NCBI GenBank assembly: GCA_027306845.1
Contig: DAHUYY010000001.1
Span: forward strand, 1 to 29,346
DNA from: Vulcanimicrobiota bacterium
GTDB lineage: Bacteria; Vulcanimicrobiota; Vulcanimicrobiia; Vulcanimicrobiales; Vulcanimicrobiaceae
Reading direction: 5' to 3'
DNA: 29,346 nucleotides
Shown here: one piece after another, positions 824 through 22,521 of the stretch
Layout: each line of letters opens with the position of its first letter
Numbering within the stretch: position 1 is the first letter of the stretch
The notes under the pieces: model-generated
The model's input: only the letters and a program-made list of their open reading frames with translations
Database searches by the model: none
Told to the model about the DNA's origin: nothing
Position numbers and translations under genes: made by a program

Positions 824-1466
824 GAAACCCCTTCCCGCACGTCGCGCTTCGGTCGATTCCGGAGACGATTCCAGAGCGCAACCACCAGGCGGCCGCCTCC
901 GCCGTAGCCCACGACCATCGCAAGCGGGACCAACGAGAGCTATGCGGGGCCCCTCGTTGCCGCCCAATACGTGCCGATCGATAAGAGCAGCGCGGAGAGC
1001 AACGCGGACGCGATGACCCTGACGATCCGCGCTCTTCCCGCATCGTCGAGAAAGGCGCCTCGACGACGATAGCTGCGCGTCGTCATCGCGGCACTCAGCA
1101 CGAAATTTATTGCCAAGGTGGCAAAATATAACTCCGTGCCGATGACGCTATCGCTTAATGTCGCCGCATGAGCGCTGATCTGCATGAAGTAGGTCAATAG
1201 TGCGACGGTGGCGAGCCACGAAAATTTATCAGGATGTTTATCGTATCGGGATAGAAGACGACGCGAAAGATCCGATAGTGCGACCACCACATGAGCGCGA
1301 CGATGGAAAAGGTAAAGAGATAATAGAGAAACCAAGAGGGATTGCTTACCAGCGCGATCGCGTGGCTCGGTATCACCAGCCCGAACGTGAGCTCGGCGAG
1401 GCTGAAGCCGATGACGATATCGCAAAAGGCTTCGAGCCGATGGACGAGATGTTCGTCGCGCTCCAT
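820..1466 (-). pseudogene. TMEM175/DUF1211-family channel, disrupted by a 1-nt frameshift (~1221-1224) and an in-frame TAG (940-942)
   Basis: N-terminal ORF has RLEAFCDIVIGFSLA and Y.FTF.IVALMWWSHYRIF (TMEM175 signature); hydrophobic sequence continues in another frame (SWLATVALLTYFMQ...) and again past the TAG (LSLVPLAMVVG...) to TAA at 820-822. The repaired length would be about 215 aa. Confidence 0.8.
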
Positions 1467-1470
1467 AATC

Positions 1471-1860
1471 TTAAAGCGCGGCGTCGCCTAAAAGCGCGCG
1501 CGCCCGTTCGTTATTGTCGGTGCTAATTGCGACGACGGCGAAGCCCTCGTCGCGCCGGACGTGATGGAGCGAACGAATATTACTCTCCGCATCGCCGAGC
1601 CGTCGCGAGACGCCGGCGAGCGCACCGGGGCGATCTTCGATCCGCGCGAGCAGCACGTCGTCGGTCACGGCGGGGTGCCCCGCATCGGCGAGCGCGGCGA
1701 GCGCCTCACTTTCGCGTTCGACTTCGAGCCGAACCAGCGCCGCACTGCCGTGCGATTCAACGACAATCGCATGAATATCGACCCCGCGAGCGGCCAGCAC
1801 CTCGGTGATCTCCGCCAACAGCCCCGGCCGATTCGGGACGATCGCTCTCAGGCTTTGCAT
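1471..1860 (-). CDS. Tandem ACT-domain protein
   Basis: 129 aa with two ACT signatures (NRPGLLAEITEVLAARGVDI and DRPGALAGVSRRLGDAESNI); AGGAGG RBS inside the end of the upstream gene; 13-nt overlap with it. Confidence 0.88.
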   Translation of the reverse strand: MQSLRAIVPNRPGLLAEITEVLAARGVDIHAIVVESHGSAALVRLEVERESEALAALADAGHPAVTDDVLLARIEDRPGALAGVSRRLGDAESNIRSLHHVRRDEGFAVVAISTDNNERARALLGDAAL

Positions 1861-8680: not shown

Positions 8681-9447
8681 TGGCGCGACGCCGACCGCGG
8701 GAATCATGGTGGCTCGCAATTCCCGCGCTGTTGTTTCTGATTGCGCCCTTTTTCGCGCTGGTTTTCGCGACGCGGTGGACGCATTTTTCGCTCGATCCCG
8801 GCGACTGGTCGGCGATCGGCGTCTCGCTGGGATACGGCGCCTGTGCGATGCTCGTGGTCGTCGCGCTCGGAACGCCGTTTGCTTGGTGGCTCGCGCGCAC
8901 GCATTTCCCCGCGCGGTGGGTCGCCGATGCAATCGTGCTGTTGCCGCTGCTCTCACCGCCGCTCGCATTGGGAATCGTTCTGGAGACGCTCTACGGGCCA
9001 TACGGCGCGGCTGGTGCGCCGCTGGCGCGGCTCGGGTTACTGCTGACGAATTCCGCCCCCGCGTTCGTCCTTGCACTGACGTATGGTGCATTGCCGTTTT
9101 TCATCGTGCTCGCACGCGCGGCATTCGAAGGGGTCTCCCCGGAGTACGAAGCGCTCGCGCGGACGTTAGGTAAATCACAGCCCGCGATCTTCTTTACCGT
9201 TACTCTTCCGCTCGCACGCGTCGGCTTAGGTGCGGCACTCGCCATCGCGTGGGTACGAGCGCTCGGAGAGTTCGGCATCTGCCTCATCGTTGCGTATTTC
9301 CCAATGGGCATACCGGTGCGACTCTGGGTGAATCTGCAAGATGTCGGGCTCGGCGCGGTCTTCCCGCTGCTCTGGATCTTTTATCTGGTCGCGCTTCCAC
9401 TGCCGCTCTGGCTCGGGTTGCGCGCGCAACGGAGAAGCGTCGCATGA
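8680..9447 (+). CDS. Molybdate/tungstate ABC transporter permease (ModB/WtpB-like)
   Basis: 255 aa; LPLLSPP.ALG, EAA-like loop YEALARTLG, WVRALGEFG. Confidence 0.88.
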   Translation: MARRRPRESWWLAIPALLFLIAPFFALVFATRWTHFSLDPGDWSAIGVSLGYGACAMLVVVALGTPFAWWLARTHFPARWVADAIVLLPLLSPPLALGIVLETLYGPYGAAGAPLARLGLLLTNSAPAFVLALTYGALPFFIVLARAAFEGVSPEYEALARTLGKSQPAIFFTVTLPLARVGLGAALAIAWVRALGEFGICLIVAYFPMGIPVRLWVNLQDVGLGAVFPLLWIFYLVALPLPLWLGLRAQRRSVA

Positions 9448-10037
9448 CGGGCGTGCACGTCGCCTATCGCATCTTCGAACCGATCGAACTTGAGGTGGAG
9501 TTCGATATCGCCGGAGTGACGGTGCTCCTCGGTGCAAACGGCGAAGGGAAGAGCACGATTCTTCGCGCGCTCGCCGGGCTGCTGGCGGCGGAGGGCACGC
9601 CGTTCTCCGGGCTCCCCCCGCAACGGCGGCCGATCGCCTATCTCCCGCAAGAGCACTTGCTTTTTCCGCACCTGCGTGCGTGGGAGAACGTCGCGTTTGC
9701 CTTCGACGAGCGCACCCATCGGCGCGAACGGGCGCTCGCATTACTCGCCCGATTCGATATCCAAGAACTTGCCGAGCGATTTCCGCACCAACTCTCCGGC
9801 GGCGAGCGCCAGCGGGTTGCCATCGCGCGGGCGTTCGCACGCCGGCCGCAACTCGTGCTCTTCGACGAACCGACCTCCGCTCTCGATAAAAGTGCGCGCG
9901 AGGCTTTTCTCTCGACCGCACTTCCAGCGCTCCGTGACGCCGGAATTCCGACGCTCGCCGCCACGCACGATCCCGCGTTGGTCGAGGTCGCCGATTGCAC
10001 CGTGCTGCTGCGCGATCGTAAAATCGTCGTCGCGTAA
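9444..10037 (+). CDS. ABC transporter ATP-binding protein (ModC-like, no C-terminal TOBE domain)
   Basis: ATGA-coupled start at 9444 (197 aa); Walker A GANGEGKS, LSGGERQR, Walker B LVLFDEP, H-loop ATHD. Confidence 0.88.
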   Translation: MTGVHVAYRIFEPIELEVEFDIAGVTVLLGANGEGKSTILRALAGLLAAEGTPFSGLPPQRRPIAYLPQEHLLFPHLRAWENVAFAFDERTHRRERALALLARFDIQELAERFPHQLSGGERQRVAIARAFARRPQLVLFDEPTSALDKSAREAFLSTALPALRDAGIPTLAATHDPALVEVADCTVLLRDRKIVVA

Positions 10038-10049
10038 AGCAGCACCGCC

Positions 10050-10140
10050 GTCATCCCGAGTAGCTGCCGAAGGCAGCGTATCGAGGGAGCGCTTCTCGCG
10101 CGCCTCGATACGGGCGCTAAAGCGCCCTACTCGGCGTGAC
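10050..10140. repeat. REP-like inverted doublet, copy A (91 bp)
   Basis: GTCATCCCGAGTAG-[CTGCC GAA GGCAG]-CGTATCGAGG ... CCTCGATACG-[GGCGCT AA AGCGCC]-CTACTCGGCGTGAC: two copies of one unit in inverted orientation, each with an internal hairpin; lies between convergent genes. Confidence 0.9.
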
Positions 10141-10149
10141 AGTATCTCC

Positions 10150-10238
10150 ATCACCCCGAGTAGGCGCACCGCTGTCATCCCGAGTAGGCGCACCGCTGTC
10201 ATCCCGAGTAGCTGCCGAAGGCAGCGTATCGAGGGAGC
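10150..10238 (+). repeat. Three tandem copies of the REP left end (24-bp period), the last continuing into a complete single unit
   Basis: ATCACCCCGAGTAG at 10150, GTCATCCCGAGTAG at 10174 and 10198, separated by the identical 10-mer GCGCACCGCT; 10190-10238 matches 10042-10090 at 48/49 nt. Confidence 0.9.
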
Positions 10239-18318: not shown

Positions 18319-18861
18319 ATGCGCCCGATCGCTCTCTTTGCTTTTTTTGCAAGCCTCGCTATCGCTGCTCTCGCTCTCTCACCGCTCCGAAGTTCCGCTC
18401 GCGCCACGGCCCGAGCCGCCGCGTCCTCCTCCGCAGCGCAAGCGTCGGCGCCGCTCGACGAGTATTTCGGCCGCATGAAGCTGAGCCCGATCGGCATCGG
18501 CAACGAACTGCACCTCATCGCTACGCGCTCGCGAAATGCAAACGACGCGCGAAACTCGCTGCCGTTACTGACGCTCCTCGAAGATTCGATGCACGACTGG
18601 GAGCACCGGTACCCTCATGACGACTGGATTCCCATGAACCTCGCGCGTCTGGAGCACGATTATCTACTCGTTCCAACGTTGGGCGGGCGCATTCATGCGA
18701 TGCACGTGATCGAATGGCTTCGCTCTGATTACCCCGGTAGCCCGGCCCTCGATCGCGCGCAACGCGAAGCGGAGCGAGCGATGGGCATACCGACGCCGAC
18801 TCCATCACCCGTGGCGTCCTCCACCCCTCAACCGGAGGCGAGCGCAACGCCGACGCCGTAG
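18319..18861 (+). CDS. Uncharacterised secreted helical protein
   Basis: 180 aa from ATG 18319; signal-peptide-like N-terminus, APLDEYFGRMKLS motif, Pro/Thr tail. The track's extension to 17932 is antisense to the cupin gene. Confidence 0.7.
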   Translation: MRPIALFAFFASLAIAALALSPLRSSARATARAAASSSAAQASAPLDEYFGRMKLSPIGIGNELHLIATRSRNANDARNSLPLLTLLEDSMHDWEHRYPHDDWIPMNLARLEHDYLLVPTLGGRIHAMHVIEWLRSDYPGSPALDRAQREAERAMGIPTPTPSPVASSTPQPEASATPTP

Positions 18862-18870
18862 ACGGCGCTC

Positions 18871-19323
18871 ATGCCGAACTACTGGCTTTTCAAAAGCGAA
18901 CCGCAGAGCTATTCCATCGAGGATCTGCGACGTGACGGAACGACACCATGGAGCGGCGTTCGCAATTATCAGGCGCGCAATTTCATGCAGGCGATGTCGG
19001 TGGGCGACGAGGGTTTCTTCTATCACTCGTCTTGTGCCGTACCCGGGGTGGTCGGCATCTGCCGCGTCGTGCGCGCCGCCTACCCCGATGCAACCGCCTT
19101 CGATTCGCGCAGCGAATATTACGACCCGAAAAGTTTGCCGGACAACCCTCGTTGGTTCAATGTCGATGTAGAGTTCGTCCGTGCGTTTTCCGATGTCGTG
19201 CCGCTGACGCGTCTGCGGGAGATCGCCGCGCTTGCAAAGATGCCGTTGCTGCAGCCCGGCCAGCGCCTTTCGGTGCAACCCGTTCGCGTTGCGGAATGGC
19301 GCGCTATTCTCAAGCTCGCTTGA
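18871..19323 (+). CDS. EVE domain protein (THYN1-like)
   Basis: 150 aa; YWLFKSEP, WSGVRNYQARNFM, FFYHS, DPKS..DNPRW..VDV, RLSVQPV. Confidence 0.93.
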   Translation: MPNYWLFKSEPQSYSIEDLRRDGTTPWSGVRNYQARNFMQAMSVGDEGFFYHSSCAVPGVVGICRVVRAAYPDATAFDSRSEYYDPKSLPDNPRWFNVDVEFVRAFSDVVPLTRLREIAALAKMPLLQPGQRLSVQPVRVAEWRAILKLA

Positions 19324-19337
19324 ACGAAGATGCCTCT

Positions 19338-19403
19338 GCCATCCCGAGTAGCAATATCGCTCCGTCATCCCGAGTAGCAATACCGCTCTGTCATCCCGAG
19401 TAG
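19338..19403 (+). repeat. Three tandem copies of the REP left end (26-bp period)
   Basis: GCCATCCCGAGTAG at 19338, GTCATCCCGAGTAG at 19364 and 19390; spacers CAATATCGCTCC and CAATACCGCTCT. Confidence 0.9.
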
Positions 19404-19478
19404 CCGCGCAGCGGCGTATCGAGGGATACTTCGGCACGGCGCCTCGATACGGCGCTTTCAGCGCCTACTCGGCGTGAC
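19390..19478. repeat. REP-like inverted doublet, copy B (89 bp)
   Basis: GTCATCCCGAGTAG-[CCGC GCA GCGG]-CGTATCGAGG ... CCTCGATACG-[GCGCT TTC AGCGC]-CTACTCGGCGTGAC; same conserved arms as copy A with different hairpins and central spacer. Confidence 0.9.
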
Positions 19479-19578
19479 AACGCCATACACGGCGCGACAA
19501 CGCCATACGCGGCGTGACAACGCCATACGCGGCGTGAGAACGCCATACGCGGCGTGACAACGTCATACGCGGCGTGAC
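19479..19578 (+). repeat. Five tandem 20-bp units, each ending in the REP right terminus
   Basis: Consensus AACGCCATACGCGGCGTGAC x5 with 0-2 differences per unit; each ends in (C)GGCGTGAC and can fold as ACGCC/GGCGT. Confidence 0.92.
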
Positions 19579-19581
19579 ATT

Positions 19582-19626
19582 AAAAAAGAGCTGGGGTCGC
19601 AAATGCTAGCCCAGCTCTTTTTTTTT
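19582..19626. terminator. Bidirectional intrinsic terminator
   Basis: AAAAAA-GAGCTGGG...CCCAGCTC-TTTTTTTTT between the convergent EVE and TonB-receptor genes. Confidence 0.88.
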
Positions 19627-19656
19627 ATCGACGTCGCGCGCCGATAGCGCTTCGAA

Positions 19657-22521
19657 TTAGAACTTGGTTGAGAGAATGAAGCGATAGGTTGCCGGCCCGA
19701 GCACGTTGCCGACGGTCGCCGCTTGCGAACCGTTGACGAGCGGCACGGGAACGCCGCCTCCATAGACCGGGAAGAGACCGTTGTAGGCGTTGAAGATGTT
19801 ATCCCCGGAGATCTGGAAGTCAAAACGTTTGTTAATCGGCACGCGGACGGTAACGTAACCGATTCCGAACGGCGGACGATTCAACGAGTTGTTATTCCCG
19901 TAAAGCGTGTCGCCGAATGCGGCGTAGAGGCCGCCCTTGGAGCGGAAGTTGAGTTCGAGGTTCGCCTGCGCGTAGGGCAAGCGCGTATTCATCGAACCGA
20001 TCGTGCTGCCGTACCCAATGCCGCCGCCGTTGAAGTTTTGGTTGGCGATGACGTTGAGATTTTGGTTCTGCGTGCAATTCGGTCCGGGAGTGGAGCAATA
20101 GAAGTACTGCGGCAGATTGTACACATAACCACGCGAGAGATCGCCTTCGAGTACGTAGCCGAGTCCGACGTGCGGAAGGCTACGCAAGCCGAGTTCGATT
20201 CCCTGGAAACGCGCGTTGCTCAGGTTCACGTTCGACTGATAGAAGACCGGCGTGTTCCCGGGAGCGACGGGGCTGCACTGTACCTGCGGGCTCGCACAGG
20301 TGTACGGGCTGGGGTACGTCTGGCCGAAGAACTTGTTAAACAAGTTGGTCTGGTAGAGATCGACGGTTGCAACCGAATTTGCCTTCGGCATACGGAAGCT
20401 CGCGCCGAGATCGAAGCCATAGGCCGTCTCGGGTTTAATGCCGCCGTTGTTGGTTTTTAAGGTCGCGATGCCGGTCGACGAGCTGTAGGCCGCCGTCGGG
20501 CTTGCGATCTGGCTAAGCAACAAGAGATATGGCGGTGCGATCGCCGAACCGATCGAAAGGCGGACCGCCGTGTTCGAGTCCGGGCGATACGTCAGTGCGA
20601 AACGGTCGTCGAAATGCGAATTTGTCGTCGAACCGAACGTTACGTTCGAACCGTTGATCGCGCAATTCGAGAAGCCGAACGCAAACGGACACGAGACGGG
20701 GTAAGTGCTGTTGTAGATGTTTTCGTAGAGCGTCGCATAACCGCTCAACTTCGGGTTGATGCGGAAGTGGCCACGCAACGTAAACGTCGTGAACTTCTGC
20801 GCCGAACCGGTCGGCAGGTTGACGCTGACGAACGAGCTCTTCGAGTACGACGTCGTCGTCGAAACGGTCTGGTCGATTCCGAAGCTCAGCGTATTGCTGC
20901 CCATCGGGTGGAGATAGAGGAACGAAATTCCCGAAAGAGCATCTTGCTCGGTCTGCAGATAGCTGCTGTTTATTGCCAGCGTCACCGGGGTGCCGTTGTA
21001 GAAAACCGGCGCAGCCGCGCAGACGTTGTTCGTGATTTTCGCCGGGCACGCGGAACCATAAAGGGTCTGCGACACCAAACTCGGCGTGCCGTTGGGGTTG
21101 CCTTCCGTAATCTGGCGCAAGATCGACGCGTGATAGTAGCGCGCGAGCACCGTATCGCGGCCGAGCGTCGAGCGAATCTCGCCTTGCAGAATCGGCTCGT
21201 TATTGATCTCTTGGTCGGTACCGCCGACATGCAGATAATTCACGCCGAGCCCGCCTGAAGCGAGGCTTCCGGTGTATCCGGCGAGCGGCGAGAAGGTGCC
21301 GAGGGTCAAGTTTCCGGTATTGCCGTTCTGATCGGAGAACGTCTGCGAGCCGAGGTAGCTCACCGTTGCCGTCGTCGCTTCGGAGAGCTTATAACGGAAC
21401 TTCACCAGCTCGGCGGTCTGCGTGTATTGACCCTGAACGTTGTAGCAGCAAGCGACGAGCGGATAGATCGTCTGAATGCTCGACGACGTTCCAGGAATCG
21501 TCGTATAGGTGCTTGCACCGTTGAAGCCGTTAATCGACTTGCCGAGACCGGTGTCGACATTACCGCTTGGGTCGTAATAAACTTGCTGGTTGTTAAGCAC
21601 CGACGGATCGTCAACCGTTGCCACGTCGAAGACCAGGCCAAGGCGACTCACGGTATCGGAGAATCCGAAATTCGAGAACGTGCCGCCATGATTGGTAACG
21701 CCGATTGCGATGTCGGGGGTTGGCTTGTACGTCGGGTCTTTCGTGCGGAAGTTCAAGGTACCGCCGATAGCGTAGTTGACGGGAACGGTCGCACCGGGTC
21801 CCTTCACGACTTCGGTGTTCGAGAACATATACGCATTGAGGAACGTCGTCACGTAGTCGCCGTAGGTTCCCACCGAGAGCGGATGCCCGTCGATGAGCGT
21901 GGCGGTTTCAAACGAACCCGCACCGCGAATATTGGGAACGGTGATCGAGCCCGGAATCGCAGCGTTTGCGCTGCTCGAGGGGAAGGAGATCTGCACGCCC
22001 GGCACTTGGCTGAGCACGCGCGTCACCTGAACCGCGCCCTGATTTGCATAGACCGCCGAAGAGACGACGCTCACCGCAGCCGGGGTGGTGTTAAACGTTC
22101 CGCGCCCGACCGCCCGAACGGTGGCGATCGTCCGCAGCGAAGAGAACGTCGCTGCGTGCATCGTCACAACGACGCTTTGCGTCTGCCCGGCAACGACGGT
22201 GTAGTCGGTATCGGTCGCCGTCTGATAGCCCGGCTTCGTAACGATAATTTCGTAGACGCCCGGCGCGATACCGGAGACGGTAAAATTGCCCTTCACGTCG
22301 GATAGGGCATAATAGCTCTTGGGGCCGCGGACGGCGATCGTCGCCCCCGCAACCGGAGCACCGGAGACATCGTGGAGCGAACCGCTCACCGATCCGGTGC
22401 TTTGAGATTCAGCCTGTGCGACGAGGCGATGCGACGCGCTCCGAACCGTTGCCGCACTGACGGGTCCAACGGTGAACGCGGCGATGGCCGCGACGAGCAG
22501 GAGTCGAGTGAGTGTACTCAG
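19657..22521 (-). CDS. TonB-dependent receptor with N-terminal carboxypeptidase-regulatory-like domain (probable CTG start, 954 aa)
   Basis: SGSLHD.SGAPVAGATI...G.FTVSGIAPGVYEI.V.KPGY N-domain, plug-like region (TLIDGHP, EVVKGPGA), beta-rich body, C-terminal Phe. The signal peptide lies upstream of the track's GTG 22389. Confidence 0.85.
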   Translation of the reverse strand: MSTLTRLLLVAAIAAFTVGPVSAATVRSASHRLVAQAESQSTGSVSGSLHDVSGAPVAGATIAVRGPKSYYALSDVKGNFTVSGIAPGVYEIIVTKPGYQTATDTDYTVVAGQTQSVVVTMHAATFSSLRTIATVRAVGRGTFNTTPAAVSVVSSAVYANQGAVQVTRVLSQVPGVQISFPSSSANAAIPGSITVPNIRGAGSFETATLIDGHPLSVGTYGDYVTTFLNAYMFSNTEVVKGPGATVPVNYAIGGTLNFRTKDPTYKPTPDIAIGVTNHGGTFSNFGFSDTVSRLGLVFDVATVDDPSVLNNQQVYYDPSGNVDTGLGKSINGFNGASTYTTIPGTSSSIQTIYPLVACCYNVQGQYTQTAELVKFRYKLSEATTATVSYLGSQTFSDQNGNTGNLTLGTFSPLAGYTGSLASGGLGVNYLHVGGTDQEINNEPILQGEIRSTLGRDTVLARYYHASILRQITEGNPNGTPSLVSQTLYGSACPAKITNNVCAAAPVFYNGTPVTLAINSSYLQTEQDALSGISFLYLHPMGSNTLSFGIDQTVSTTTSYSKSSFVSVNLPTGSAQKFTTFTLRGHFRINPKLSGYATLYENIYNSTYPVSCPFAFGFSNCAINGSNVTFGSTTNSHFDDRFALTYRPDSNTAVRLSIGSAIAPPYLLLLSQIASPTAAYSSSTGIATLKTNNGGIKPETAYGFDLGASFRMPKANSVATVDLYQTNLFNKFFGQTYPSPYTCASPQVQCSPVAPGNTPVFYQSNVNLSNARFQGIELGLRSLPHVGLGYVLEGDLSRGYVYNLPQYFYCSTPGPNCTQNQNLNVIANQNFNGGGIGYGSTIGSMNTRLPYAQANLELNFRSKGGLYAAFGDTLYGNNNSLNRPPFGIGYVTVRVPINKRFDFQISGDNIFNAYNGLFPVYGGGVPVPLVNGSQAATVGNVLGPATYRFILSTKF

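Follow-up and report, generated by a model that had tools for sequence, protein, structure and literature searches.

We show that the repeat block at positions 19338–19578 of the window (the whole stretch of 29,346 nt that was analysed) belongs to a family of GTAG-tagged REP elements that occurs throughout its genus, mostly as inverted doublets like those of REPINs and BIMEs. Over half of the REP ends in this genus have been re-copied outward, and the resulting arrays behave as minisatellites which are seeded recurrently and then undergo concerted evolution. The genus belongs to the Vulcanimicrobiota/Eremiobacterota and is represented by 12 genomes, all of them MAGs from mine drainage and soil. 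The block is referred to below as locus B, and a second site of the same family in the window as locus A. Coordinates of both, of the neighbouring genes and of the counterparts of locus B in related genomes are collected in Table 1.

Table 1. Features of the two REP loci (window coordinates unless a contig is named) and arrays at locus B in the genomes compared (period in nt x copies or copies x period, as given).
Feature	Position	Strand	Description
Locus A REP doublet	10050..10140	.	Same family as locus B; no left array here, 3 x 24 in G008
Locus A end array	10150..10238	+	3 x 24 nt with junction gcgcaccgct; one full REP unit follows (TRF, sequence)
EVE-domain gene	18871..19323	+	Pfam EVE, E 1.7e-56; stop codon just 5' of the repeat block
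Locus B left array	19338..19389	+	Two truncated 26-nt units, each 14-nt outer end + 12-nt junction; distal one with 1 mismatch
Locus B left full REP unit	19390..19426	+	GTCATCCCGAGTAG 19390-19403, hairpin ccgcgcagcggc 19404-19415, GTATCGAGGGA 19416-19426
Spacer between the doublet's two inverted REP units	19427..19439	.	Sequence
Locus B right full REP unit, inverted	19440..19478	-	CGCCTCGATAC, hairpin ggcgctttcagcgc, CTACTCGGCGTGAC (19465-19478)
Locus B right array	19479..19578	-	Five 20-nt units (aacgccatacgCGGCGTGAC)
Terminator-like hairpin with A-tract and T-tract, common to two converging genes	19582..19623	.	RNA fold
TonB-dependent receptor gene, converging on the block	19657..22389	-	Pfam CarboxypepD_reg + Plug
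G000 locus B			26 x 2.5 and 20 x 5.9
G008 locus B			Left 26 x 2.6 (diverged, shared), right 22 x 7.9
G004 locus B			Left 33 x 2.9
G007 locus B			5 x 24
G006 locus B			21 x 3.7 in one comparison, 2 x 22 in another
G011 locus B			No left array
G009 locus B	L020, G009:C67, ~1460-1580		No element: 14-nt spacer + shared terminator

The centre of locus B is a REP doublet (19390–19478) flanked on both sides by arrays. Folded as DNA it forms one long hairpin (−31.7 kcal/mol, z −5.15), and TCCC is paired with GGGA in the left full unit. The first-pass annotation had described tandem copies of both ends of this doublet, and this description is borne out on either side. The left end of 14 nt occurs three times with a period of 26 nt (19338–19403); the copies at 19364 and 19390 are exact and the distal one at 19338 (GCCATCCCGAGTAG) carries one mismatch, in agreement with the claim that it is the most diverged. 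The junctions of this array are caatatcgctcc and caataccgctct, and TRF reports it at 19340–19404 with period 26, 2.5 copies and 94% matches. On the right, the core end (19465–19478) is followed by the five 20-nt units described (19479–19578), every one of which is closed by CGGCGTGAC or a variant of it with one mismatch, and TRF reports 19462–19579, period 20, 5.9 copies and 91%. With up to three mismatches allowed, the window holds nine matches to the 14-mer compared to an expectation of 1.95, the largest number in 100 shuffles being five. The small hairpins proposed for the right units can form (GGCGT-GACA-ACGCC), but the array as a whole is only modestly structured, its DNA fold giving z −2.6 on the plus strand and −0.85 on the minus strand. 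Fold analysis of the left array shows no structure beyond chance.

The terminator-like hairpin downstream of the block folds with −24.8 and −24.1 kcal/mol (z −6.3 and −6.5) and is kept in all of the species compared; a simple scan for consensus terminators misses it because its loop is long. Since the stop codon of the EVE gene lies just upstream, the repeat block is placed in the 3' untranslated region of that gene. Both REP copies of the window, at loci A and B, sit between converging genes. No Rfam family reached its gathering score in the window and around the locus only chance-level matches were seen at E ≤ 10. Logan contigs from four runs of two studies cover 18900–19393 and 19444–19555, each with 0 differences; neither array is covered in full by any single contig, and some of these runs may be the source sample. 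A contig of low depth leaves out 81 nt of the right array, which is too weak a signal to be used. The sequence was found in runs from metagenomes of mine drainage and soil.

A full unit of the family can be written as T|GTCA-NNCC-GA-GTAG-(variable hairpin)-(C)GTATCGAGG-N'N'. The NN and N'N' positions are complementary in 89 of 95 units (shuffle mean 31, maximum 45), GTAG stands immediately 5' of a 3–6 bp stem in 93 and a T occupies position −1 in 91 of the same 95. There are 37 hairpin variants, nearly all with a perfect stem of 3–6 bp. An inverted partner is present within 45 nt for 52 of 103 full units, as in REPIN/BIME-type doublets. Strict matches number 27–273 per genome in each of the 12 genomes of the genus and 0 in the controls, which is the abundance of a REP family, and 29 genomes from other genera within the taxonomic family, order and class lack the repeat. 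The GTAG-tagged REP superfamily is recognised by GTAG or GTGG located 0–2 nt 5' of a hairpin (PMC6006769, PMC3733652); the apical stem seen here is shorter than the 7–20 nt of the published REP search rule. The core NNCC-GAGTAG-hairpin-GTATCGAGG-N'N', with covariation of its own, is also found in Alphaproteobacteria, Hydrocarboniphaga/Nevskia, Sphingomonas, Binatia, Armatimonadota, Anaerolineae, Peribacteria and others (loci L025–L144), and the Peribacteria copies even have the GTCAYCCCGAGTAG end. This spread points to the core being a widespread REP type with a putative conserved internal loop of tandem G-A and a bulged T, for which we found no name.

Two other identities were considered for the repeats and rejected. 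A transposable element with terminal inverted repeats would come with a target duplication and an autonomous relative, and neither was found: despite the 14-nt inverted ends, no target-site duplication is seen at the REP elements, which show only a conserved YNYT context on their 5' side, and no autonomous element was found between distant inverted ends, the sole long pair enclosing an ars operon. A CRISPR array can be dismissed since the junctions, which would be the spacers, are identical within each array, so that these are plain tandem repeats. The ars operon (arsR - ACR3-type arsenite carrier - arsC, its genes named by eye from ORF translations) is located exactly between two inverted full REP units at L166 (G008:C12, 14550–16488), in an organism of mine-drainage habitats. 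A second repeat family (…cgagcggagcctgcgtgcacc…, ~150–260 nt) is often present between two REP halves, giving composite elements of ~250–330 nt bounded by the same 14-nt ends. It was seen in G000 at C131 736–797, C144, C157 and C326 and at locus B in L024 (G006), L022 (G001) and L021 (G003), and it also forms a 19-nt tandem array in C131.

The frequency of end arrays was counted in G000 together with 400 kb of the better-assembled G008, where 118 full units are present. We found 49 chains, in which one to nine truncated outer-end units are followed by a full unit, as compared to 39 lone full units, along with 13 more complex arrangements. About half of the strong tandem arrays of G000 contain the end motif, including almost all of those with periods that are not multiples of three. 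The polarity is pronounced: outer motifs follow one another without an inner motif in between 169 times versus 13 for the reverse, of which about three are REP-related, and among units that lack a close inverted partner 29 of 51 have 5' copies as compared to 2 of 51 with 3' arrays. Related REPs of other phyla carry a second end copy upstream in 4 of 87 cases, three of which are whole-unit tandems, compared to all seven of the loci of this phylum. Among 120 metagenome loci, 67 such chains were found in high-GC carriers and none in low-GC carriers. Every one of the 12 species of the genus has similar arrays, and so do many JGI metagenome contigs.

Duplication takes place at scales ranging from 18 to ~250 nt. 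Whole-unit tandem arrays occur in C361 (5 x 49), in C35 of G006 (8 x 48) and in G008_C6 at 147.7 kb, and G008 contains arrays of 10 x 32 and 10 x 23 nt as well as kilobase higher-order repeat blocks. One higher-order block of 1.1 kb in G008:C6 (L152–L160, 155389–156511) combines a doublet with end arrays at periods of ~130–155 nt and ends in ten 23-nt units. Runs of 10 N, either scaffold gaps or masked stretches, fall inside arrays of this kind.

The idea that the arrays are limited by the GTCA/TGAC termini was tested and turned out not to hold, as the end lies in the middle of the unit and units straddle the boundary between element and flank. A repeat unit consists of 4–13 nt of upstream DNA, the 14-nt end and 0–14 nt of the hairpin, and the periods range from 18 to 49 nt. 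The inner break falls 0–1 nt past GTAG in 23 of 49 arrays; in the remaining ones it coincides with one of three points of the hairpin, its arm/loop junction, its loop/arm junction or its far foot, and intermediate units keep the whole hairpin and a few nucleotides resembling GTATC. When compared with the flank upstream of the first unit, the junctions show a mean identity of 52%, with full agreement in several young arrays and in C322 (10/10), G008_C6 (7/7) and C358 (6/6) among others. In several arrays the duplicated flank is immediately preceded by AG or TAG, which corresponds to the GTAG at its opposite limit, and the YNYT context 5' of GTCA is retained even in the distal-most copies. A clear gradient of divergence along the arrays is rejected: the mean number of mismatches rises only weakly, from 0.79 to 0.91 over ranks 1–4, and in 13 of 33 arrays the distal unit is one of the most mismatched.

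Locus B was compared across eleven species. Identity within an array is 87–100% and the units differ among species. The 20-nt right unit of G000 is the homologue of the 22-nt unit of G008 (CTACTCGGCGTGACaacgcaat), from which all of its copies differ by a loss of 2 nt and one substitution. The units of G002 and G010 no longer contain the end motif, and the G002 array still holds at least 5 copies at 96% identity. The part of the unit that derives from the hairpin matches each species' own hairpin, which argues that arrays were seeded separately in the lineages, and the hairpin of the full unit differs among species at one and the same locus, which argues that the family has turned over during the history of the genus. 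Tandem units of 10–100 nt, variation in copy number and concerted evolution are all seen, as in minisatellites or VNTRs. The homogeneity and variability of REPIN/BIME tandems are seen as well, but what is repeated, directly, is in most cases a truncated outer end and not the whole pair.

The array at locus A has the 24-nt period ascribed to it, and ACCGCT is indeed common to the left junctions of both loci. This sharing is partly explained by the YNYT context that precedes GTCA. The junction of the locus A end array matches the left flank of the first doublet there (gcaccgcc). Between G008 and G000 the flanking gene is 98% identical and the end copies of the first doublet number three versus one; in other species locus A has 4 x 23, 29-nt units or 2 x 22, or is left with decayed remnants or with no copies at all. 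In G009 this locus carries two arrays of 4 x 23. The ABC-ATPase gene at locus A ends in ...GTCACCGAGTAG in L185 (G003), L187 (G001) and L186 (G006), with the stop codon within GAGTAG, and a short palindrome resembling the two REP ends comes next; either a doublet has decayed here or the end of the gene mimics a REP end. Identity of G008 to G000 is 98% in the ABC-ATPase gene of locus A (window 9400–9990) as compared to ~80% around locus B (18700–20400); judged from the sequences, this contrast is suggestive of recent recombination between species of the genus.

An end-directed, iterative duplication process had been proposed for these repeats. The outer ends have indeed been copied repeatedly and in one direction, at the majority of ends and independently in different species at the same locus, but the limits of the copies are not at the termini and the arrays behave as minisatellites. 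The process does not lack a described precedent either, since tandem amplification of BIME/REP in E. coli and a nick-extend-rejoin model for it have been published (PMC3333891). We give about an even chance to recurrent local duplication of a replication type, followed by slippage or unequal exchange. For seeding, DNA synthesis would enter the element from the flank, break off at the foot of the apical hairpin past GTAG or inside the hairpin, and resume a few to ~13 nt upstream of the element at a short homology, e.g. AG or TAG, whereby flank, end and 0–14 nt of the hairpin would be duplicated. Once two copies are present, slipped-strand mispairing or unequal exchange could expand, contract and homogenise the array. 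The stall-and-switch step itself is what we infer.

This replication-slippage account does not require a dedicated end-directed enzyme, and it leaves unexplained both the polarity towards the GTAG side only and the restriction to one lineage. A structural stall should be symmetric, yet arrays of the inner end are almost absent. Hairpins have also been replaced at fixed loci, by means which the account does not name. More arrays at stronger hairpins were looked for and not seen: arrays accompany 11 of 14 units with an apical stem of 3 bp, 38 of 81 with 5 bp and 2 of 8 with 6 bp, the copies not being independent. The same hairpin architecture is found elsewhere without arrays, so a lineage-specific factor is needed. 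It is conceivable, and in our estimate rather unlikely, that an unrecognised factor (a new nuclease, or a polar replication barrier protein recognising GTCANNCCGAGTAG) drives the multiplication of the REPs, the swaps of hairpins and the polar re-copying without Y1/RAYT.

Searches for the partner enzyme envisaged by the first-pass annotation (a nuclease, HUH enzyme or reverse transcriptase) did not provide one. Y1_Tnp/RAYT (PF01797) was found in none of the 12 genomes of the genus, the RAYT of E. coli being detected as a control, and no Y1 match appeared at E ≤ 10 in five of them, including one that is 95% and one that is 90% complete. Other candidates are sporadic or absent, with IS110 over the cut-off in none, TnpB in two and reverse transcriptase in one of the five genomes searched. 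When an ad-hoc Y1 profile was used to scan 797 kb of metagenome DNA that carries this REP, together with G000 and part of G008, a single match was obtained (L226), and this gene is flanked by a different REP, GTAGGGGCGCC. Y1 genes are present in four of five genomes of other lineages with related REPs; those REPs are almost never arrayed and do not flank the Y1 genes. These counts are to be read with the scaffold gaps of G008 in mind, which fall inside REP arrays and could hide a REP-flanked gene. Lack of a RAYT does not exclude the elements from the REP class, since REPtrons are known to be missing from some REP-bearing strains. RecJ (TIGR00644) gave no match in 31 genomes of the class, single-contig ones included, compared to 13 of 14 control genomes, and ExoVII was found in 29 of the 31, both tallies including the unpublished genome G036, on which alone no claim rests. 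With no match to RecJ and with ExoVII found in nearly all of these genomes of the class, the pattern is not specific to the genus, and loss of a repeat-stabilising exonuclease was rejected as a cause of the arrays.

The strict GTAG-side polarity, the cluster of breaks directly past GTAG (23/49) and the variable limit in the flank would all be accounted for by a REP nuclease of the HUH/RAYT type, which nicks the inverted strand within CTAC; a host polymerase then extends from the nick, a loose second cut is made in the flank and rejoining adds a unit, as in the nick-extend-rejoin model of Ton-Hoang et al. 2012 (Fig. 7B; PMC3333891). In vitro, TnpA-REP of E. coli catalyses strand transfer and cleaves at C|TAC as well as at C|T sites in the linker, and tandem BIMEs consist of homogeneous copies whose number varies (PMC3333891). 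The conserved YNYT 5' of GTCA resembles a target or cleavage site of the IS200/IS605 type. The gene would have to be unassembled, recently lost, on an unbinned replicon or too divergent to be recognised, and the gaps inside the REP arrays of G008 could conceal it. Against such a nuclease stand the absence of Y1_Tnp from all 12 genomes and, at E ≤ 10, from five of them, and the absence of any Y1 gene beside this genus's REP in the 797 kb of metagenome contigs. Y1 genes of other lineages are not flanked by the related REP and those lineages are without arrays; moreover, about half of the breaks are away from GTAG and arrays outlast the loss of the motif. This explanation is the main rival of the account given above, and we rate it as rather unlikely. 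The whole-unit tandem arrays mentioned above, and the intermediate units with a whole hairpin and GTATC-like nucleotides, would fit an origin from tandem REP units (produced by adjacent insertion or unequal exchange), one of which loses its hairpin and inner half before the shortened unit spreads. Deletion stimulated by hairpins is well known. This origin does not account for the invariable survival of the outer 14 nt and loss of the inner 11 nt, and the junctions of many two-copy arrays are plain flank and not inter-unit linker. We hold it to be quite unlikely. Simple nesting, with one REP inserted into another, is excluded, since orphan inner halves were not found behind the full units.

It is also possible, with a probability we rate as low, that the arrays are kept or expanded since they are useful, either as reiterated sites for a GTCANNCCGAGTAG-binding protein or as structures of the 3' untranslated region that affect mRNA decay or termination. 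The location of the block between a stop codon and a shared terminator means that it would be transcribed as 3' untranslated region, the truncated left units of G000 and G008 differ at 4 of 28 motif positions versus 7 of 24 junction positions (small numbers), and in E. coli REPs are known to bind proteins and to act as regulators in 3'UTRs (PMC3733652). However, structure is at chance level in the left array and modest in the right one, the orthologous unit of G008 lacks the 5-bp hairpin of the G000 unit, and the periods of 18–49 nt show no preferred phase. The motif has decayed in G002 and G010 while the array stays, arrays have been gained and lost among close relatives, and no Rfam match was obtained. 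An artefact of short-read assembly across a repeat family is very improbable. Many contigs of the MAG to which the window belongs do end inside such arrays, and neither array of locus B is covered in full by any single Logan contig; but arrays of 40–130 nt fit within single reads, species-specific units recur at orthologous loci in 12 assemblies, arrays are present in many independent metagenome contigs, and the contigs of four runs show 0 differences. Recurrent local duplication followed by slippage or unequal exchange is the reading that we prefer.

In this genus, hundreds of young and polar amplifications of partial units form a natural data set, and they apparently arose without an enzyme of the E. 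coli type; to our knowledge, all that is known about how REP/BIME clusters grow comes from in vitro studies of a single E. coli enzyme. Should no enzyme be involved, REP ends can be strong directional seeds of bacterial minisatellites; otherwise the genus hides a new REP-processing activity. The arrays also break short-read assemblies of this uncultured phylum and, as fast-evolving markers, could serve for strain typing. A literature search gave no description of such end-only arrays, and a search with the motif as a word returned only primers.

Several known systems resemble the arrays in part. REPINs and GTAG-tagged REPs (Bertels & Rainey 2011; Nunvar et al. 2010, PMC2817692; Di Nocera et al. 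2013, PMC3733652) are likewise built on a short GC-rich hairpin that GTAG immediately precedes; they too have extragenic copies numbering in the tens to hundreds per genome, inverted doublets that form long hairpins, and paired hairpin variants. In contrast to them, GTAG is here part of a larger conserved stem (NNCC/GGN'N', tandem G-A, bulged T), a GTCA tail of 4 nt is added, the apical stem is 3–6 bp, no REPtron was found, and the core motif occurs in several phyla whereas arrays occur in this lineage only. Minisatellites or VNTRs share the periods of 18–49 nt, the changes in copy number, the homogenisation of units and, in 13 of 33 arrays, the strongest decay in distal units; here, however, seeding is tied to one end of one mobile-element family, is very frequent and is strictly polar. 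In eukaryotes, ends of Helitrons or MITEs have turned into satellites. These arrays also reiterate one terminus of a small non-autonomous element, but the domain of life and the enzymes differ and the likeness is an analogy only. There is likeness as well to the tandem REPs and BIME-2 of E. coli with the TnpA-REP model (PMC3333891), where GTAG-tagged hairpin repeats in inverted pairs downstream of genes are amplified locally in tandem, with copies that are alike within a locus and vary in number among relatives. There the unit is the whole REP/iREP pair, whereas here it is the outer end with its flank, often without a hairpin and in direct orientation; more than half of the ends are affected here and no RAYT gene was found in the 12 genomes. 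The best reading is that the arrays are a variant of the BIME amplification of E. coli, set apart from it by an apparent lack of RAYT, by the involvement of more than half of the ends with strict polarity, and by a sub-REP unit that is repeated directly.
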